Of a stretch of DNA of 64,000 bases, positions 2,658 through 59,099 are shown piece by piece. The DNA lies in the sequence record ON184125. The stretch is one strand, 5' to 3'. The position numbers and the translations under genes were made by a program. The notes under the pieces are model-generated. The model saw only the letters and a list, made by a program, of their open reading frames with translations. It was not told where the DNA came from and searched no databases. The stretch is from Escherichia phage PC3. Each line of letters opens with the position of its first letter. The stretch's first letter is position 1.

Positions 2658-5207
2658 ATGATTTCTCAATTCAATCAACCACGCGGCTCCACTTCCATAG
2701 AAGTTAACAAACAATCTATCGCTCGAAATTTCGGTGTCAAAGAAGACGAAGTCATTTATTTCACTGCTGGTATTGATCTCAGTGGATTTAAAGTAATTTA
2801 TGATGAGTCTACCCAACGGGCTTATTCTCTTCCTTCAGGTATTGTTTCAGGAACGACTGCGATAAGTCTGAACGAACAAGCCATCCTCACTCATTCCGCT
2901 GGTTCTGTTGACCTTGGGGAATTAGCAGTAAGCCGCGAAGAGTATGTAACCTTACCTGGTTCATTTGATACCGGTGTAACTGTTAATACTAAGAATGAAT
3001 TAGTTGTATTTACTGATGGTAAGTACCGTTGGGATGGGGCATTACCTAAAGTAGTTCCTGCTGGCACAGACCCTACTCTTCCAGGGAGTGGTTATATTAG
3101 GTGCTCCAATCAGTTCACAAGCACACAGACCCGTGAGGCGTTGCGCCGTAGCTATGCAACAGCAGGCTATAATCTAGTAGATGGTAGCTTTGAGTCGGGC
3201 GGTACACTAGTGAACGCCAACGATGTGCTACTACAAGAACGCACTGGTAAGGCGTTCTCTGGTCCTGCTGGTATAGTTGTCGCTGGGACTAACCCGATAA
3301 CTGGTGGTTACAAAGTTGCTGGAATATACAAACATTTCTCCTCTTTTTACGAGATGATTGCGTCCACGGAGGCAGAGTTACCTGTAGATTCAGTATGCTC
3401 AACCGGCGGTACAATGTGGGTCAGGTCTGCTTCCCAGCCAGCATTAACATCATTTACCCCTATAAGTGCGATTTGCGGGGATGATTTCGGCATAACCGCT
3501 GGAGAGTCTGTCTCTGGCCAGACTATATCTGAATTCCTAACTGTAGCTTACACATCAGGGTGCCGTGGGTACTTCAAGTCAGTCGGTGAAGTTACTGTAA
3601 CCAGCAATATAGAACTATTGTCGATTGATAAAAACTTAGTTGTTGATTGGACTGGTATAAAGTTGTTCGGGGCATCTGATGGGGTGGAAATGCACTTGTC
3701 ATCAACCGAGATTCGGTCTTCACTTCTAGCTGATATGGTAAGTGGCTCCACAGTTGTGCAGGTGGATGGGGCTGTAGAAGGAGATTTGATTTATATAGAG
3801 GACAACAAGACGTATGAGACTCAGTGGAATTTTAACTCAAGGGAGTTGTTTATTGCAGAGCGTGAATCTGGTTCTAGTATGAAAGTTGATAGGCCAGCGC
3901 TATTCAATCATTTAGTAGCAAACAACGTTAAGGTCAACAGGTACAAACCGGTAAGGTTGATTTTCAATAACTTCAAGATGGAGCACTTCAACAATCGTGA
4001 TAACTCATCTTTTGTTAATATAGGCTCCGCATCATTCGGGGTTTCATCTTCATGGTTTCGTGGTTTTTATATGCCAGTCTTTTCTGGTGACGTGGAAACC
4101 AGTGGTGGTTCTTCGTACTTATTGATAGCCTGCTATATGCCAAGAATTGGCAATGTAGTTGCTAATAGGTGTCAGTATCCTATCAGCCCTGCGGCGGGTA
4201 CTTACGATACAGTTATTGATAGCATCACAGCATCATTCTGTCGACATGCTGCCTCCCCAACAACATGGTTCAACAAGTTCGAGGTTAAAAAGTGCTTCGG
4301 TTATAATAACTTCGCCACGATGGACTCGCACGCTGGTTTTGATGCTAAATGGCGTAACGTATTTGCCACCGAAGAATATGATATGCCAAATATAAGATGT
4401 CTTGGTGGTGAGCTGACAGATATCAATATAGTTGCCAGTTTGGGCACAACCCCAGCAGAAGACCCTCAGATAGGTATCGTCACATTTACTGGTGATGCTT
4501 CTATGCACCGAGACTGGATCGCTACTAATGTTGCTCTAAATTATAAAAACCGGACGGATGATATTTTCGCATTACCGTGGCAGGCTGATAATGTCTATTA
4601 CGAAAATATTAACTGCATGGGTGGTTTTATTAGATGTGTAAACACAGCATCAAAAATAAAAACAGTAACATTAACAAACATCAATGCCTGCGTGAGACTG
4701 GTAGGTGACTGCGGAAATCTGAAAACATTAATAAACAACAGGGTAATTCCAGATGATAGTCTCTACATGTATGAGAATGCACCGAACGGGAAGAAAACTA
4801 CATTATGGGAAGTTAACTGTGGGCATACTTCGGGGGCTTCTGCTAACAAAGTTTTAAAGATTTTTGATAACTATGGAACATTAGAATCGCAAAACCTACT
4901 AGTAAAAATTAAGTCGTGTTCTTCATATAATAACGGAGGATCCGTTGCTTATATTGAGAAGACGTACCTAGTAAATCATAAGCTCAGCGCGAATTCTTCC
5001 GCGTCGATATCAGGACCTGTGAATGAAACTCGCATAAACGGCGTGACAGATTCGGACATATCACTCAATGTAACATTAACTAATTCTGCGGGATACACAC
5101 AGTCACCAGATATAAACGCGCATTTCTTTGAGCTAACTATAGCTACAACCACAAGTAGACCGAATAACGTATTCGGTATAACTGTAGAGATATCAAAACT
5201 CAATTGA
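2658..5207 (+). CDS. Tailspike protein 2
   Basis: 849-aa ORF; the conserved module lies at residues ~15-130 and is ~90% identical at DNA level to the TSP1 copy; CTAAATA motif 27 nt upstream. Confidence 0.7.
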   Translation: MISQFNQPRGSTSIEVNKQSIARNFGVKEDEVIYFTAGIDLSGFKVIYDESTQRAYSLPSGIVSGTTAISLNEQAILTHSAGSVDLGELAVSREEYVTLPGSFDTGVTVNTKNELVVFTDGKYRWDGALPKVVPAGTDPTLPGSGYIRCSNQFTSTQTREALRRSYATAGYNLVDGSFESGGTLVNANDVLLQERTGKAFSGPAGIVVAGTNPITGGYKVAGIYKHFSSFYEMIASTEAELPVDSVCSTGGTMWVRSASQPALTSFTPISAICGDDFGITAGESVSGQTISEFLTVAYTSGCRGYFKSVGEVTVTSNIELLSIDKNLVVDWTGIKLFGASDGVEMHLSSTEIRSSLLADMVSGSTVVQVDGAVEGDLIYIEDNKTYETQWNFNSRELFIAERESGSSMKVDRPALFNHLVANNVKVNRYKPVRLIFNNFKMEHFNNRDNSSFVNIGSASFGVSSSWFRGFYMPVFSGDVETSGGSSYLLIACYMPRIGNVVANRCQYPISPAAGTYDTVIDSITASFCRHAASPTTWFNKFEVKKCFGYNNFATMDSHAGFDAKWRNVFATEEYDMPNIRCLGGELTDINIVASLGTTPAEDPQIGIVTFTGDASMHRDWIATNVALNYKNRTDDIFALPWQADNVYYENINCMGGFIRCVNTASKIKTVTLTNINACVRLVGDCGNLKTLINNRVIPDDSLYMYENAPNGKKTTLWEVNCGHTSGASANKVLKIFDNYGTLESQNLLVKIKSCSSYNNGGSVAYIEKTYLVNHKLSANSSASISGPVNETRINGVTDSDISLNVTLTNSAGYTQSPDINAHFFELTIATTTSRPNNVFGITVEISKLN

Positions 5208-5497: not shown

Positions 5498-7906
5498 ATG
5501 ACCAGAAACGTCGAGAGCATCTTTGGAGCGGTCGTAACAGCTCCGCACCAGATTCCATACACTTACACAGCAACGGGCGGAGAGAAGTTTATCTCCCTCC
5601 CTTTCTACCCTGTCACTGGTATAGTCACAATCAACGGTGGTATGCAAGTTCCGTTAGACAACTTTGAAATCGATGGAAATACGTTGAATCTCGGACGCGC
5701 ATTATCCAAAGGTGACGTTGTGTTCTGTCTGTTTGACAAGATTCTGTCTCCAGAAGATTATAAAACCGGGGTTCGAATCTATAAGTTTCAGGCTATAGGA
5801 GGTGAAACCGAGTTCACTCCTGATTACACATCTTATGGAGTCCAATCTCTTTATATCGGTGGTGAGTACAAAACACCCGAAATTGAATATTCCTATGACA
5901 GCACGACAGGGAAAGTGACTTTACAAACTGCGCTGACTGCAGGCGTTTGGGTAGTCGCTGAAATGTCTGTTAAACAACCGAATATCAGTCCGTTGTTTGA
6001 CCGAAGTATTCAAGAAATCGCTCGTGCTACTAACGTCAAGGATAGTGAAGTAATCCTCAGCACGGATACTACTCAGTCCCTCAATGGTAAGAAGGTTGTT
6101 TATTCTGTTAGTGAGCAGAAGGCATATGGGTTGCCTACATTGCCTACTAACGTATATATTTCTTCCGTTAATGGTGACCAACTAACATACAATCCTGGTG
6201 GGATTGTTGTTGACCTGCTCCCTGCACCCAATGATGTAACTCCAGTGGAGAATGAGTTGCAGGTATATAAAACGGCTATGGTTACTGATGGGGGAACATT
6301 AGTAAATTCTGGCTTATCTGGTGTTTCTTCTGCAATTAAGCGAACCATTGATAGCCATTTTAAAGACTACTATAACGTTAAAGATTTTGGTGCTGTTGGT
6401 GACGGAGCTACTGATGATACGGTAGCCATAAAAGCAGCTATAGCTTATGCTGGCACCACAAAAGGCGTGGTTTATTTCCCGGATGGTAACTATAAAATAA
6501 GCAGTACTCTTGCTCTACCATCGAATGTATCAGTAATAGGGAGAAGTCGTGAATCAGTTATTATAACGAAAACGACATCCACCACCGTTACAGTTCTGGT
6601 GACAGCGCCTGCACTATCTGGAGGGTATACCGGAACCCTGCCTACAGATATGAATGCGGTTATTTGTTTAGGGGATTCTAGTAGTTCAAGATGGTCCGGT
6701 GTCATCACAGGGGTTACTCTGTATGGGACAAAAACTACAACGGAAAACCACGCGGTAGAATTTGGTATCGTAAATGCAGGCGTGGTATCCGACGCCACGA
6801 TAGAAGACGTCTATATTTACGATTGCAAGTATGGGCTAATTCTCCCTGTTGTATTTGCGTCGCGAGTAGGAAACAACCGCGTTACCGCATGTCTCGGTGG
6901 GGTATTTATAAACAACGGCACTTCATGCGTAATATCTACTAACTATAGTAATAGTTGCCGTGATTATGGGCATTGCTATCGGGATCTTAAATACTCTGTT
7001 ATAGAGGCTAATGCCTGTGATCACACTAACAGGAACGACTATTATCCGGACAGGACAAGAGTGTGTTATGGCTATATATTACAGAACCTGCTAGGGGTAA
7101 CGGTAACTGGGAATGGTCAAGAAGGCACTCTGGGTATTAACTGGAGATTGGATAATTTCGACCATAGCTCATTCACCAATAACACCAGTATTAGACTTGG
7201 TTCTGATTACACAGGCCCGTCTAACATATCATGGCTAGAATTAAATGGAGTGGCGCGCAACAGCATCATTGAGAACAATGTATCTTATGAGTACAACTCT
7301 AATGGGATGTTGTTTGGTGGGGCCGTAGCTGGGCAACACCATAATATTTACATCTCCGATATTACGTTTTTTAACGCAATATTGCGTAACAACATTGTAA
7401 GGTCTACACGAAATGGGGTTCCGGTGGAGGCTGGTTGGCTCAACAATGTTACCAGAACGGTGGCGAATTCATCCGCCAAAATCAGGCCAGACCGTACTTT
7501 CTTAGCGAATGACCCCGGTTCGCCTGAAATTACAGTTCAATCAGGCACCAATGCGGTGATATCATACGGCGAGTATACCGTACATAACATAAATTATGTC
7601 GGAGATTTTGCTCATATATTCGGTGTGTTTGATGTGACAATTGAATGGAGTTCCGGCACCAGTCAGTTCATATCTGTGACAGGATTTCCTGTCGCGCGGG
7701 ATTACGCATACATAGCAGTAACAGGGGTGAACAACGGGGACATCGGTTTTACCTCTGGAAATATTCCAGCCAGCTTTCGAATGAACATCGGGAACACTGG
7801 AGGAGCGTTCTTTACTGAAGGTGAAAAAACGCTTCGCATTGATGCAGTTGTGTCCGGTAAACGTTTGTATATTAGCTACGACGGGTGGTATCGGGTTAGC
7901 CCTTAA
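5498..7906 (+). CDS. Tailspike protein 3 (pectate-lyase-like right-handed beta-helix)
   Basis: Motif NVKDFGAVGDGATDDTVAIKAAIAYAG...VVYFPDGNYKISS typical of beta-helix glycanases; divergent copy of the shared module; start chosen by alignment with the TSP2 leader (alternative ATG 5483). Confidence 0.7.
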   Translation: MTRNVESIFGAVVTAPHQIPYTYTATGGEKFISLPFYPVTGIVTINGGMQVPLDNFEIDGNTLNLGRALSKGDVVFCLFDKILSPEDYKTGVRIYKFQAIGGETEFTPDYTSYGVQSLYIGGEYKTPEIEYSYDSTTGKVTLQTALTAGVWVVAEMSVKQPNISPLFDRSIQEIARATNVKDSEVILSTDTTQSLNGKKVVYSVSEQKAYGLPTLPTNVYISSVNGDQLTYNPGGIVVDLLPAPNDVTPVENELQVYKTAMVTDGGTLVNSGLSGVSSAIKRTIDSHFKDYYNVKDFGAVGDGATDDTVAIKAAIAYAGTTKGVVYFPDGNYKISSTLALPSNVSVIGRSRESVIITKTTSTTVTVLVTAPALSGGYTGTLPTDMNAVICLGDSSSSRWSGVITGVTLYGTKTTTENHAVEFGIVNAGVVSDATIEDVYIYDCKYGLILPVVFASRVGNNRVTACLGGVFINNGTSCVISTNYSNSCRDYGHCYRDLKYSVIEANACDHTNRNDYYPDRTRVCYGYILQNLLGVTVTGNGQEGTLGINWRLDNFDHSSFTNNTSIRLGSDYTGPSNISWLELNGVARNSIIENNVSYEYNSNGMLFGGAVAGQHHNIYISDITFFNAILRNNIVRSTRNGVPVEAGWLNNVTRTVANSSAKIRPDRTFLANDPGSPEITVQSGTNAVISYGEYTVHNINYVGDFAHIFGVFDVTIEWSSGTSQFISVTGFPVARDYAYIAVTGVNNGDIGFTSGNIPASFRMNIGNTGGAFFTEGEKTLRIDAVVSGKRLYISYDGWYRVSP

Positions 7907-23646: not shown

Positions 23647-23675
23647 CTTTACTTCTTCAATAACTCACGTATAAT
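23647..23675 (+). promoter_or_regulatory. Sigma70-like promoter (CTTTAC-17-TATAAT)
   Basis: Upstream of the 23724 gene; -10 context TATAATTCTA recurs at 31852 and 38245. Confidence 0.4.
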
Positions 23676-23723
23676 TCTAAACATAAGCAGTACGACACCA
23701 ACTTGAAACGAAGGAACTATATC

Positions 23724-31886: not shown

Positions 31887-33875
31887 ATGATTCATATATG
31901 CCGGACATGCAAAACCTCATTCGTCAATGCCCAGTCAAAGGCCGTCTACTGTAGTGTTGATTGCAGAACCTTTTACCAAACAGTTGGTATCAAATTCTCC
32001 CCAGAGTTAATGTCGGACGCCAAATTTATTCAAACTGAAGATGACTACAAAGACTTCATCCGTGAATATTTCTATATGAAGAATGGCAACCTGAATTACC
32101 AACTACTATCTTCACCCCTGTTGTCATCTTACCTTGGCGTAGACCCCCTCAAATATGCCAACCAGCACAACTCTGAAGAATCCGTGAACACCCGTGTATT
32201 GGTCTGGTTACACGACGTCAAACCAACACCTTGTATCACCTGCGGTGCTAGAACTTCTGTCGAGATTAAGAAGTCTATCCCATCCTACCGGAAATATTGT
32301 TCGGAGGAATGCTATGCCCAATCAATGAAGTTGGGTGGTGAAGCCCGTAAAGTCTTGGACAAGACAATACTGGACAAATATGGCGTGGAAAACGTGTTCC
32401 AGGATGAATCCATAAAAGGGAAGGCACGGTTGACCATGCTGCAGCGTTTCGGCGTAGAACACATTATGCAGTCTGAAGAGGGGCGGCAGCTATTCAGAGA
32501 TTCCGTTATGGAAAAATATGGGGTTGAGCACCCGATGCAGTTGGAAGAGATCAAACGGCGCGCATGGGATACCCTCGGTGCTCGGTCTTGGTATGCTACT
32601 TCAGAAGGTAAAGCTGCGCGGGAGAAGGCATTTGGTGGATACCAAGGCGGTCATCCGATGCGTGACAGGGGTGTTATAGAGAAGATAATCTCAAACAATC
32701 TCAAGCGGTATGGTGTTGAATGGCCTGCTCAAGACCCTGTTATCAAAGCTAAAGTTGTAGACACCATGTTGGAAAAATATGGTGTGTCCCACCCATTACA
32801 AATACCAGAAGTGAAAGCCAGAGTCAAACAAAGTCACCAAACAAAGTACGGTAGATTCTATTTCAATAGACATGAGGTTATGTTATTGGCTTCGGAACGT
32901 TCTAAAGAGACATGTGTTAGAAAATATGGTGTACCATATGCGTTGCAGAACAAATCCATGTGGGAACACATTACGTCATCCCTTAATTCGAAATCAAAAC
33001 CAGAAATAGAAATATCTGATTGGCTCACTTCAATGGGGGTTGCCCACAAATGCTCCGACTTCACCCTCCTAAACAATATGAATTGCCAGGACGGTGGAAC
33101 TCGACGCCAGATAGACATCTATTGCCCAGAACACAAACTGGCAATAGAATTTAATGGCCTGTATTGGCACAGTGAGATACACAAATATCGCCGTTATCAT
33201 CTCGAAAAGACAGAGGCATGTGAAGCACAAGGCGTTCAGCTGATACACATCTGGGAAGATGAGTGGCATAACAACCCAGAGATCGTGAAAGGGTTGCTGG
33301 CTGCCAAACTCGGGATCAAGAAGCCATCCGGGTACGCCCGTCAGTGTTATGTAGAGGAAGGTAAGAAGTCGGATATTCTAGAACTCCTGGCCTCTCAACA
33401 CATACAGGGCACCATTCATTCGGCCACGCATTACCTTCTCCTCAGAGATAAGAGAGACAACCGGGTTCGGGCTGTCATGACCTTTATCAAACGTGTGGTG
33501 AAGGGGGAACAGTGTATGGAACTTACGAGGTTTGCCTCCGACGGCATTCACGGGGCGTTCTCTAAACTGCTGGCGTACTACAAGGAACATCTCTGGGATG
33601 GCGTGAAGACTTTCTCCTTTGGCGATAGGTGTGTTGTTAGTCGGTTGTCCAACATTTACCTTTCTCACGGGTTCGTCGAGGAAGAAATACAAGACCCGGA
33701 TTACAAATATCACAAACCAGGGACTCTCATGCGGGAGCACAAGTTTGGATTCAGAAAGGCAGACTTTGCTCAGATGGGCTATGACGTAGAAGGTAAGACA
33801 GAAGATCAGTTAGCAACCGAAGCCGGGCTGGTCAGGATTTGGAATTGTGGACTGATCAAATATGTCTTGAACTAA
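31887..33875 (+). CDS. Homing-endonuclease-like protein 2 (paralog of 24106..25890)
   Basis: Same architecture; stretches such as RQIDIYCPEHKLAIEFNGLYWH are identical in both proteins (~88% DNA identity there). Confidence 0.55.
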   Translation: MIHICRTCKTSFVNAQSKAVYCSVDCRTFYQTVGIKFSPELMSDAKFIQTEDDYKDFIREYFYMKNGNLNYQLLSSPLLSSYLGVDPLKYANQHNSEESVNTRVLVWLHDVKPTPCITCGARTSVEIKKSIPSYRKYCSEECYAQSMKLGGEARKVLDKTILDKYGVENVFQDESIKGKARLTMLQRFGVEHIMQSEEGRQLFRDSVMEKYGVEHPMQLEEIKRRAWDTLGARSWYATSEGKAAREKAFGGYQGGHPMRDRGVIEKIISNNLKRYGVEWPAQDPVIKAKVVDTMLEKYGVSHPLQIPEVKARVKQSHQTKYGRFYFNRHEVMLLASERSKETCVRKYGVPYALQNKSMWEHITSSLNSKSKPEIEISDWLTSMGVAHKCSDFTLLNNMNCQDGGTRRQIDIYCPEHKLAIEFNGLYWHSEIHKYRRYHLEKTEACEAQGVQLIHIWEDEWHNNPEIVKGLLAAKLGIKKPSGYARQCYVEEGKKSDILELLASQHIQGTIHSATHYLLLRDKRDNRVRAVMTFIKRVVKGEQCMELTRFASDGIHGAFSKLLAYYKEHLWDGVKTFSFGDRCVVSRLSNIYLSHGFVEEEIQDPDYKYHKPGTLMREHKFGFRKADFAQMGYDVEGKTEDQLATEAGLVRIWNCGLIKYVLN

Positions 33876-33879
33876 AAGA

Positions 33880-33938
33880 ACATTTCAATAACGGGGCGAG
33901 AGGTATTATTGCCCCGTCTATTAATCGAGGAAATCGCA
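33880..33938 (+). repeat. Copy 1 of a ~45-bp direct repeat with internal hairpin
   Basis: ttcaataacggggcgagaggtattattgccccgtctattaatcgagg; second copy 260 bp downstream. Confidence 0.6.
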
Positions 33939-34139
33939 ATGAGCCTGAAAGAAGATTCTGTAAACACCACAGTCGCCAACTCCACCTTCCGTGAGTGGCA
34001 CGACGTATTGTGTAAAGTCGCGAAAAGCCAGGGTGGTTCGGCCGCCGACGCCGACGCCTGGCGTGATGACTACGAAGCGGGCAAGACCCCGCGCCAGTCT
34101 TGGGAAGATGAATGGGGTTGGGAAGAACAAGAAGGATAA
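33939..34139 (+). CDS. Small acidic Trp-rich protein (66 aa)
   Basis: ATG with gagga SD; preceded by a ~45-bp repeat; C-terminus WEDEWGWEEQEG. Confidence 0.35.
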   Translation: MSLKEDSVNTTVANSTFREWHDVLCKVAKSQGGSAADADAWRDDYEAGKTPRQSWEDEWGWEEQEG

Positions 34140-34199
34140 CAGTTTTCAATAACGGGGTGAGAGGTATTATTGCCCCGTCTACTATCCGAGGGTTGTACC
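34140..34199 (+). repeat. Copy 2 of the ~45-bp direct repeat
   Basis: ttcaataacggggtgagaggtattattgccccgtctactatccgagg. Confidence 0.6.
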
Positions 34200-34424
34200 A
34201 TGTACTTGAAAAAGATCGTGAAGAAGCCGAAAGCCGGTGTTGCCGAGGTGTGCCTCATCGAGGTTTACGTTGATTCTTGTAACAATGAGCAGTGTTACTT
34301 CATGGTCGACACGATGGTGTATGTGCCAGCCTCTCACCTGAACCGTGATTTCATCACAACCGAGAACATCGTCCGCTGGGAGATTGCAACGCAGTCCGAT
34401 ATCGACGAACACAACATTCTTTGA
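34200..34424 (+). CDS. Hypothetical protein (74 aa)
   Basis: ATG with gaggg SD, preceded by the second copy of the repeat. Confidence 0.35.
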   Translation: MYLKKIVKKPKAGVAEVCLIEVYVDSCNNEQCYFMVDTMVYVPASHLNRDFITTENIVRWEIATQSDIDEHNIL

Positions 34425-35130: not shown

Positions 35131-35155
35131 ATTTTAAATTTATTCAATAAACGGG

Positions 35156-35184
35156 GTTTAATTCTTCAATAAACCCCGTATACT
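35156..35184 (+). promoter_or_regulatory. Sigma70-like promoter (GTTTAA-17-TATACT)
   Basis: Followed by a leader homologous to the one after the 23647 promoter. Confidence 0.35.
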
Positions 35185-35331
35185 TCATTCCATAAGCAGC
35201 ACAACACTGACTTGAAATGAAGGAACTATCACCACTCTCGTTACAAAGTAACATTGCAGCAATTTGTTCTAAACCTTTGAACAGGGTGTGTTAACCACAT
35301 ACCCTATTCCCTACAAATAGAGGACTTTATC

Positions 35332-54127: not shown

Positions 54128-54367
54128 ATGAAGAACAAAATGGTCGAAACTTCAGTAGAGATTGATCGCAATTGGGGATTGCTCCGCGCTAAAGGGTTCC
54201 GTCGTGTGTATGCGACCAAAGAAGTCTACGCACAGCGCCGTGACGTTATCATCAGCAAGAAAGGCAAAGAGTGGGTTGCTGAAGAAGTTGATGTCGAGAC
54301 AGGCATCGTAGGAAAGGTAAAGGCCAAGGCCGTGATCCTCTTCGCTCTTCTGAAGCACATCAGTTAA
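54128..54367 (+). CDS. Hypothetical protein (79 aa)
   Basis: ORF downstream of a GTTTAC-18-TATTAT promoter-like element. Confidence 0.4.
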   Translation: MKNKMVETSVEIDRNWGLLRAKGFRRVYATKEVYAQRRDVIISKKGKEWVAEEVDVETGIVGKVKAKAVILFALLKHIS

Positions 54368-54426
54368 TTCTATAACTTTGGGCGGGGTATGATTACCCCG
54401 TCTATTTGAAACCAAGAGACTATATC

Positions 54427-58820: not shown

Positions 58821-59099
58821 ATGAATCGTACTGAATTTGTTGCCCACATTGCTTCGACCCAGAATATCACCAAAGGCGAAGCGGAGAAAGTAGTGGCATC
58901 CTTTATCGACGGTGTTAAAACTGCAGTTGCTGCAGGCGCATCTGTACAGCTGGTTGGCTTCGGTGCGTTCGAAGTGAAACACCAAGAAGCGCGTGAAGGT
59001 CGCAACCCTCTGAACGGCCAGACCATTCAGATCGCGGCGAAAAACGTTGTGAAATTCAAAGTGGGCGAAGGTCTGAAGAACGCTGCCAACGGCAAGTAA
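58821..59099 (+). CDS. HU/IHF-family histone-like DNA-binding protein
   Basis: VQLVGFGAFEVKHQEAREGRNPLNGQTIQIAAKNV matches the HU core; followed by a hairpin terminator. Confidence 0.85.
   Translation: MNRTEFVAHIASTQNITKGEAEKVVASFIDGVKTAVAAGASVQLVGFGAFEVKHQEAREGRNPLNGQTIQIAAKNVVKFKVGEGLKNAANGK

Follow-up and report, generated by a model that had tools for sequence, protein, structure and literature searches.

Two closely spaced repeats in the genome of Escherichia phage PH4 (ON184126.1; Ackermannviridae, Aglimvirinae) are probably composite cassettes of the promoter-early or promoter-middle stem-loop (PeSL/PmSL) type, each of which would combine a promoter, an RNA hairpin and a homology patch for recombination. 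Expression of a conserved small gene is most likely turned on by each repeat. The window analyzed here is a stretch of 64,000 nts that represents bases 1-64000 of the PH4 genome with the same coordinates, and the locus is situated directly past the homing-endonuclease gene that has been inserted behind the major head gene. The features of the locus, together with a third related cassette, are as follows.

31887..33875, + strand: homing-endonuclease gene (annotation begins at 32010), inserted after the major head gene and before copy 1; marks the left edge of the rearranged segment
33883..33930, + strand: cassette copy 1 (putative promoter, hairpin and leader), between the homing-endonuclease gene and the 66-aa gene
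33884..33891, + strand: TTCAATAA box of copy 1, at about -32 to -25 from the putative start
33892..33916, + strand: RNA hairpin of copy 1 (CGGGGCGA, 9-nt loop, UUGCCCCG); judged from the -10 box, transcription would start at ~33916-33917
33904..33909, + strand: -10 hexamer TATTAT of copy 1, 12 nts past the box, in the hairpin loop
33927..33930, + strand: Shine-Dalgarno sequence GAGG of the 66-aa gene, read from the sequence; the ATG follows 8 nts later, at 33939
33939..34139, + strand: PH4_000026 (gp26), acidic Trp-rich protein of 66 aa, phrog_519, predicted four-helix bundle
34144..34191, + strand: cassette copy 2 (box 34145-34152, -10 box 34165-34170, hairpin 34153-34177)
34188-34192, + strand: Shine-Dalgarno sequence GAGGG of copy 2; the ATG of the next gene is at 34200
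34200..34424, + strand: PH4_000027 (gp27), 74 aa, phrog_7113, conserved across four genera; the predicted fold is small and beta-rich
54367..54414, + strand: third cassette, upstream of PH4_000055 (box TTCTATAA 54368-54375, -10 hexamer TATGAT 54388-54393, hairpin 54379-54404)

The repeat pair and a genome-wide motif

The original prediction had described two elements of about 45 bp, each located before a small ORF, containing an internal hairpin and lying about 260 bp from the other, and this description was confirmed. The pattern TTCAATAACGGGGYGAGAGGTATTATTGCCCCGTCTA has two exact matches in the window (33884-33920 and 34145-34181), whereas none was expected from 100 dinucleotide-preserving shuffles. 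The repeat finder extended the copies to 48 nts (33883-33930 and 34144-34191) with 92% identity (44/48) and a spacing of 261 nts, and also returned the third, diverged copy (63% identity), which has CCCCGTCTA in common with copies 1 and 2. In copy 1, the order is TTCAATAA, a 12-nt spacer (CGGGGCGAGAGG), TATTAT, TGCCCCG, TCTATTAATC, GAGG, 8 nts and ATG. Both copies end 8 nts short of the ATG of a small annotated gene and include a GAGG Shine-Dalgarno sequence. The hairpin is present in both, with eight pairs and a 9-nt loop that, in copy 1, contains most of the TATTAT box. A C/T difference between the copies converts a C-G stem pair of copy 1 into U·G in copy 2.

A search of the full genome, proposed along with the original prediction, revealed that the repeat is not private to this pair. 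The whole PH4 genome was scanned for TTCAATAA (at most one mismatch) followed after 11-13 nts by a TATAAT/TATTAT-like hexamer (TA..AT), and 19 sites were detected, including both copies, compared with 1.7-2.2 in shuffled sequences. Similar enrichment was observed in Kuttervirus Se-D (21 sites versus 3.6 in shuffles) and Taipeivirus cp19 (21 versus 3.1), often at places orthologous to the PH4 sites. According to the gene tables, the PH4 sites are located between annotated genes in the non-structural part of the genome; one falls in the divergent region before PH4_000188, and another precedes the tRNA-gene region. A start codon was found downstream on the same strand at 16 of the 19 sites, mostly 28-40 nts past the -10 box. 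Since the sites are intergenic, are oriented with the next gene and mostly precede its start by 28-40 nts, they behave as promoters.

Further features are consistent with this reading. The T, the A and the final T of the -10 hexamer are invariant in all clear sites (16/16), and the hexamer follows the box at 12 nts (range 11-13). Against it, a canonical -35 hexamer is absent, TTCAAT being 14 nts from the -10 box; as a sigma-70 promoter, the site offers at best a weak TnTTCA and a spacer of 16 nts, and in this form copy 2 was called by the promoter scan. In Taipeiviruses Magnus and IME250, the promoters of gp26 retain TTCAATAA-N12-TATTAT/TATCAT and have no stem (-1.5 kcal/mol, z = +0.4). Because these stemless orthologues keep box, spacing and hexamer, conservation of the TATAAT box is not just a by-product of its place in the loop, and the hairpin, missing at the orthologous Taipeivirus site, is dispensable for the putative promoter. 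The TA...T hexamer at a fixed distance, the orientation, the position and the conservation across genera thus constitute a promoter signature, from which we infer activity and a start site. Two orthologous sites have been listed singly as tentative sigma-70 early promoters in Table S2 of the Ag3 paper; those of copies 1 and 2 were not among them.

Besides this motif, several other sequence elements were observed. In T4-early-like promoters (TTTACTTCTTCAATAAC-N5-TATAAT), the TTCAATAA box lies inside the spacer. A second promoter class, TTTA(C/A)TTCTTCAATAA(C/A)-N5-TATA(A/C)T, places the TTCAATAA box 6 nts nearer the -10 box; downstream of it comes a conserved leader, CATAAGCAG(Y)AC(R)ACAC...TTGAAA.GAAGGAACTAT. 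Its sites are at 35131-35185 and 23648-23720 in the window and at 68665 and 143520 in PH4. A stem (CGGGGTTT/AAACCCCG, 35141-35178) extends over the -35 box and spacer of the first of these, which is the classical PeSL layout, and the LIMEstone1 orthologue of this promoter has been annotated as a 'putative early promoter'. The sequence CTATATCATG occurs eight times on the + strand versus ~0.3 expected (23717, 34435, 43146, 54420 and 57775 in the window; 68735, 81146 and 143945 in PH4). In each case examined, this sequence makes up the context of a gene's start codon, one such gene being that which follows the locus (34442), and this suggests a common translation-initiation or leader motif. TAAATACCCC, found seven times in the genome versus 0.3 expected (in the window at 2622, 5456, 36295 and 39492 on the + strand and at 6908 on the - strand), is a candidate late-promoter motif; two of its copies come after almost identical terminator hairpins (AAACCCCGCTTCGGCGGGGTT at 2563 and 5396). 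In addition, a 182-nt direct repeat (612-793 and 2892-3073; 81% identity, 2280 nts apart) is located in or near the first large genes.

At 58821-59099, a protein of 92 aa annotated as 'transcription factor' belongs to the HU family (Pfam Bac_DNA_binding, E = 6e-30) and is a possible DNA-binding regulator. The protein is reminiscent of TF1 of the hydroxymethyluracil phage SPO1, and modified thymidine is also carried by Ackermannviridae.

The two small proteins

The strongly acidic, Trp-rich nature ascribed to the 66-aa product was reproduced (pI 4.34, net charge of about -8, five Trp), and structure prediction, which had been recommended for this protein, gave a four-helix bundle. Much of its WEDEWGWEEQEG region, previously taken as a tail, forms the predicted fourth helix (residues 51-59), and just the last ~6 residues are of low confidence. 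Lack of conservation of the ORFs had been named as grounds for rejecting the idea; both are conserved instead. The codon differences of gp26 are nine synonymous and one non-synonymous versus PhiSH19 and five and zero versus Ag3, and gp27 is present in four genera. gp27 is far less constrained than gp26, with a synonymous to non-synonymous ratio of ~1:1, and the Trp and Arg of almost all homologues are replaced by Cys in PH4 gp27 (DSCNNEQC versus DSWNNEQR). gp26 and gp27 are real accessory proteins, whose type would be early or middle.

The acidic composition had also led to the proposal that the 66-aa product is a DNA mimic with an anti-restriction or anti-defence role. Such proteins (T7 Ocr, ArdA and T4 Arn) are likewise small and strongly acidic, 87% of the gp26 family members of ≤100 aa have a pI below 5, and the gene itself lies in a variable accessory region behind its own putative promoter, with homologues in many enterobacterial phages, Stx-converting phages among them. 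However, composition is the one property that speaks for mimicry, and comparison of gp26 with these three known mimics detected no similarity of sequence or structure. We therefore consider DNA mimicry an unlikely function of gp26, and its anti-restriction reading is unsupported.

The hairpin and its alternative readings

For the related sites, the spacer plus 16 nts past the hexamer were folded and compared with shuffles in which the hexamer was held fixed. A hairpin with z < -1.5 and the hexamer in or at its loop was found at 13 of the 19 PH4 sites, and about half of the sites in Se-D and cp19 likewise fold with a hairpin round the hexamer. The hairpins of the pair taken alone were compared with dinucleotide shuffles: that of copy 1 is modestly more stable (-16.9 kcal/mol, z = -2.2), and that of copy 2 (-14.9 kcal/mol, z = -0.8) is no better than the shuffles. 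Stem sequences vary by site (for instance, CAGAGGC/GCCTCTG, GGGGGA/TCCCCC and AGGGGAATGGG/CCCGTTCCCCT). Sense RNA is more stable than antisense at 25 of 27 strong hairpin sites from the three genomes (Wilcoxon p = 1.7e-5, a value to be read with the inclusion of orthologues, which are not independent), and 36 G·U pairs occur in the sense stems of these hairpins versus 2 in the antisense stems. The varying stems and the bias of the G·U pairs to the sense strand point to a function of the hairpin in coding-sense RNA and not as a DNA cruciform or palindromic operator.

This sense bias is also compatible with a site of RNA processing or translational control, at which RNase III, RNase E or a RegB-like nuclease would cut the hairpin or a repressor would bind it, so as to uncouple or tune the two small genes inside a longer transcript. 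The hairpin lies 10 nts before the Shine-Dalgarno sequence, and a translation repressor is annotated in PH4. Nevertheless, the strongest conservation is found outside the stem, in the TTCAATAA box, the TA...T hexamer and their fixed spacing; the stemless orthologous sites retain box and hexamer, no Rfam family was matched, and a common protein-recognition sequence is absent because stem sequences differ between sites. RNA control of this kind fits the hairpin part of our preferred explanation and leaves the element as a whole unexplained, and we regard it as doubtful. Of the shared regulatory or processing site envisaged in the original prediction, the regulatory reading holds in kind, and processing does not suffice for the whole element.

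It is quite improbable that the inverted repeat works at the level of double-stranded DNA, be it as the operator of a dimeric regulator or as a cruciform favouring promoter opening or site-specific recombination. The arms vary in sequence by site and therefore provide no shared operator, and the 36 G·T pairs on the sense strand versus 2 on the antisense would leave the complementary strand with A·C mismatches, which argues against a cruciform or strict palindrome. In favour of this reading, the -10 box lies at the centre of the inverted repeat, and in the PeSL studies it was speculated that a recombination protein might bind GGGG...CCCC stems.

A plain Rho-independent terminator duplicated with its neighbouring sequence, the outcome that had been said to refute the original prediction, is highly improbable: despite a GC-rich stem past the stop codon and T-rich, true-terminator-like tails after about half of the related hairpins, copies 1 and 2 have a 9-nt loop (3-8 nts in intrinsic terminators) and tails with 4 T in 8 nts each (TCTATTAA and TCTACTAT) in place of a U-tract right after the stem, neither was called by the terminator consensus scan, the repeat is longer than the hairpin, taking in the box on one side and the Shine-Dalgarno sequence on the other, and the box and hexamer also occur at hairpin-less sites. 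Owing to these T-poor tails and the silent scan, it is more cautious to ascribe attenuation or 3'-end protection to the hairpins of copies 1 and 2.

If each repeat is a PeSL/PmSL-type cassette, as we prefer, its promoter part would consist of the TTCAATAA box, the 12-nt spacer and TATTAT, with transcription starting ~7 nts past the -10 box. The cassette's own transcript would then have a leader of ~22 nts that carries the GAGG ribosome-binding site for the next small gene. The G-rich/C-rich inverted repeat brackets the -10 box and would lie upstream of this start. With the -10 box in the loop, the start of this transcript would fall within or past the 3' arm, so that the hairpin should form only in RNA arriving from upstream, which it may terminate or attenuate, or whose 3' end it may shield. 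In this way, the small gene could be insulated from the late capsid/homing-endonuclease transcript. Moreover, the ~35-48 nts that recur before neighbouring genes would serve as homology patches, between which genes could be inserted, deleted or swapped.

Rearrangements in relatives and comparison with known systems

The arrangement of the locus differs among relatives. In Ag3 and PhiSH19, the head gene is followed by two small genes, a cassette designated 1*, gp26, cassette 2 and gp27. Cassette 1* is unlike cassette 2, having a degenerate box and the stem GAGGGTA/TACCCTC in Ag3 or GAGGG/CCCTC in PhiSH19. gp26 is missing and one cassette precedes gp27 in LHE287, ChubbyThor, EspM4VN, RC-2014 and two IMG/VR contigs. 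Among them, ChubbyThor, LHE287 and one IMG/VR contig have the homing endonuclease before the single cassette, EspM4VN and RC-2014 have different upstream genes, and the cassette was called hybrid in all four named phages. In Kuttervirus Sa157lw and the Taipeiviruses, gp26 and gp27 overlap by 20 nts and a single promoter lies upstream of gp26.

Copy 1 of PH4 is, by sequence, a chimera of both Ag3-type cassettes. Its left part, from the box to GCCCCG and including the C variant, equals Ag3 cassette 2, its right part (TCTATTAATCGAGGAAATC...) equals Ag3 cassette 1*, and the crossover lies within the shared GGTATTATT..CCC stretch. This explains why the PH4 copies are 92% identical while the Ag3 cassettes are not. 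Such a structure of copy 1 would be expected if a ChubbyThor-like genome had been crossed with an Ag3-like one. The chimeric copy 1, together with several one-cassette relatives without the acidic gene, indicates recombination inside the element, most probably of recent date. On the homing-endonuclease left flank as in PH4, the variable stem position of the single cassette is T in LHE287 and C in ChubbyThor and contig L013, which could reflect differing crossover points or plain polymorphism.

The break that set off these events may have come from the neighbouring homing endonuclease; this enzyme could also have driven the rearrangement itself, with the cassette merely the nearest homology. 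Its ORF encodes 662 aa from the first ATG and has many internal repeats of the KYGVEHP(M/L)Q type. A 35-nt DNA repeat inside this ORF also has a spacing of 261 nts, and the match with the cassette spacing is probably a coincidence.

In RC-2014, the gene upstream of the cassette (L005, 897-1211) has the same last codons and stop (aagaaggataacag) as PH4 gp26, and its homologue in PhiSH19 (L006, 845-1177) ends differently. The common end suggests a putative second crossover point just within the coding region. This RC-2014 gene has its own TTCAATA(C/T)-N12-TATG(G/C)T site, and an overlapping stem of ~14 bp reaches the Shine-Dalgarno sequence.

Early and middle promoters could not be identified in the CBA120 paper (PMC3184105), and promoters were not mentioned in a 2024 review of Ackermannviridae. 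In the literature on this family, we found no paper describing such cassettes or the TTCAATAA motif. With ~20 sites per genome and conservation in four genera, the motif is a concrete candidate for the early/middle promoters of ViI-like phages. The locus offers a clean natural example of promoter-hairpin cassettes as crossover points beyond the T4-like phages proper, and such crossovers would help to account for the mobility of accessory genes in this phage family, which is in wide use for biocontrol. ViI-like phages have been reported to lack MotA and AsiA (PMC3184105). As a tentative suggestion, TTCAATAA-N12-TATAAT might represent the missing pre-replicative promoter class of Ackermannviridae, read with a phage factor that replaces MotA/AsiA and not by sigma-70 alone. 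Such a factor could turn T4-early-like promoters off and these promoters on, and the cassettes might be mobile promoter-terminator modules that shuffle accessory genes like gp26, possibly with anti-defence roles.

The known systems nearest to the PH4 cassettes differ in how much of the element they match. Intrinsic terminators share a GC-rich RNA hairpin after the stop codon, and many sister sites are T-rich-tailed; they differ from copies 1 and 2 in that the long loop of the latter holds the -10 box. T4 MotA-dependent middle promoters and the PmSLs of Vibrio phage nt-1 have a box ~12 nts upstream of TAnnnT (TATTAT in the nt-1 PmSLs) and no -35 hexamer at 17 nts, and the PmSLs combine the promoter with a stem-loop. 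In PH4, TAnnnT likewise lies 11-13 nts past the box without a -35 hexamer. The box itself is different, being (T)TGCTT in PmSLs and T4 middle promoters versus TTCAATAA in PH4, and the PH4 sites do not have the MotA box, (a/t)(a/t)TGCTT(t/c)A with its centre at -30.

PeSL cassettes have been described in the T4-like phages RB49/phi1, T4/PST and KVP40/nt-1 (Arbiol et al. 2010, PMC2839356; Comeau et al. 2014, PMC4122927). These cassettes cluster in variable regions, where they mediate the insertion, deletion and exchange of small genes through recombination, and their promoter activity, terminator activity and mini-circles have been demonstrated by experiment (PMC2839356, PMC4122927), while the PH4 cassettes were recognized by sequence. 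The two also differ in phage group (T4-like phages versus Ackermannviridae), in the upstream element (a sigma-70 -35 hexamer at 17 nts in PeSLs versus TTCAATAA at 12 nts from the -10 box in PH4) and in the hairpins of copies 1 and 2, which have no clear U-tract. On the other hand, in both cases a promoter module is repeated in intergenic regions, a G-run/C-run stem-loop with G·T pairs either separates the upstream box from the -10 box or overlaps the latter, and the module ends in a Shine-Dalgarno sequence and a start codon. Both flank small genes of variable regions, and through recombination within the module, the gene lying between two copies is gained or lost. All sequence-level features of PeSLs/PmSLs, namely a promoter repeat, a stem round the -10 box, a Shine-Dalgarno sequence with start codon, and junctions of gene gain and loss, are found at the PH4 locus.
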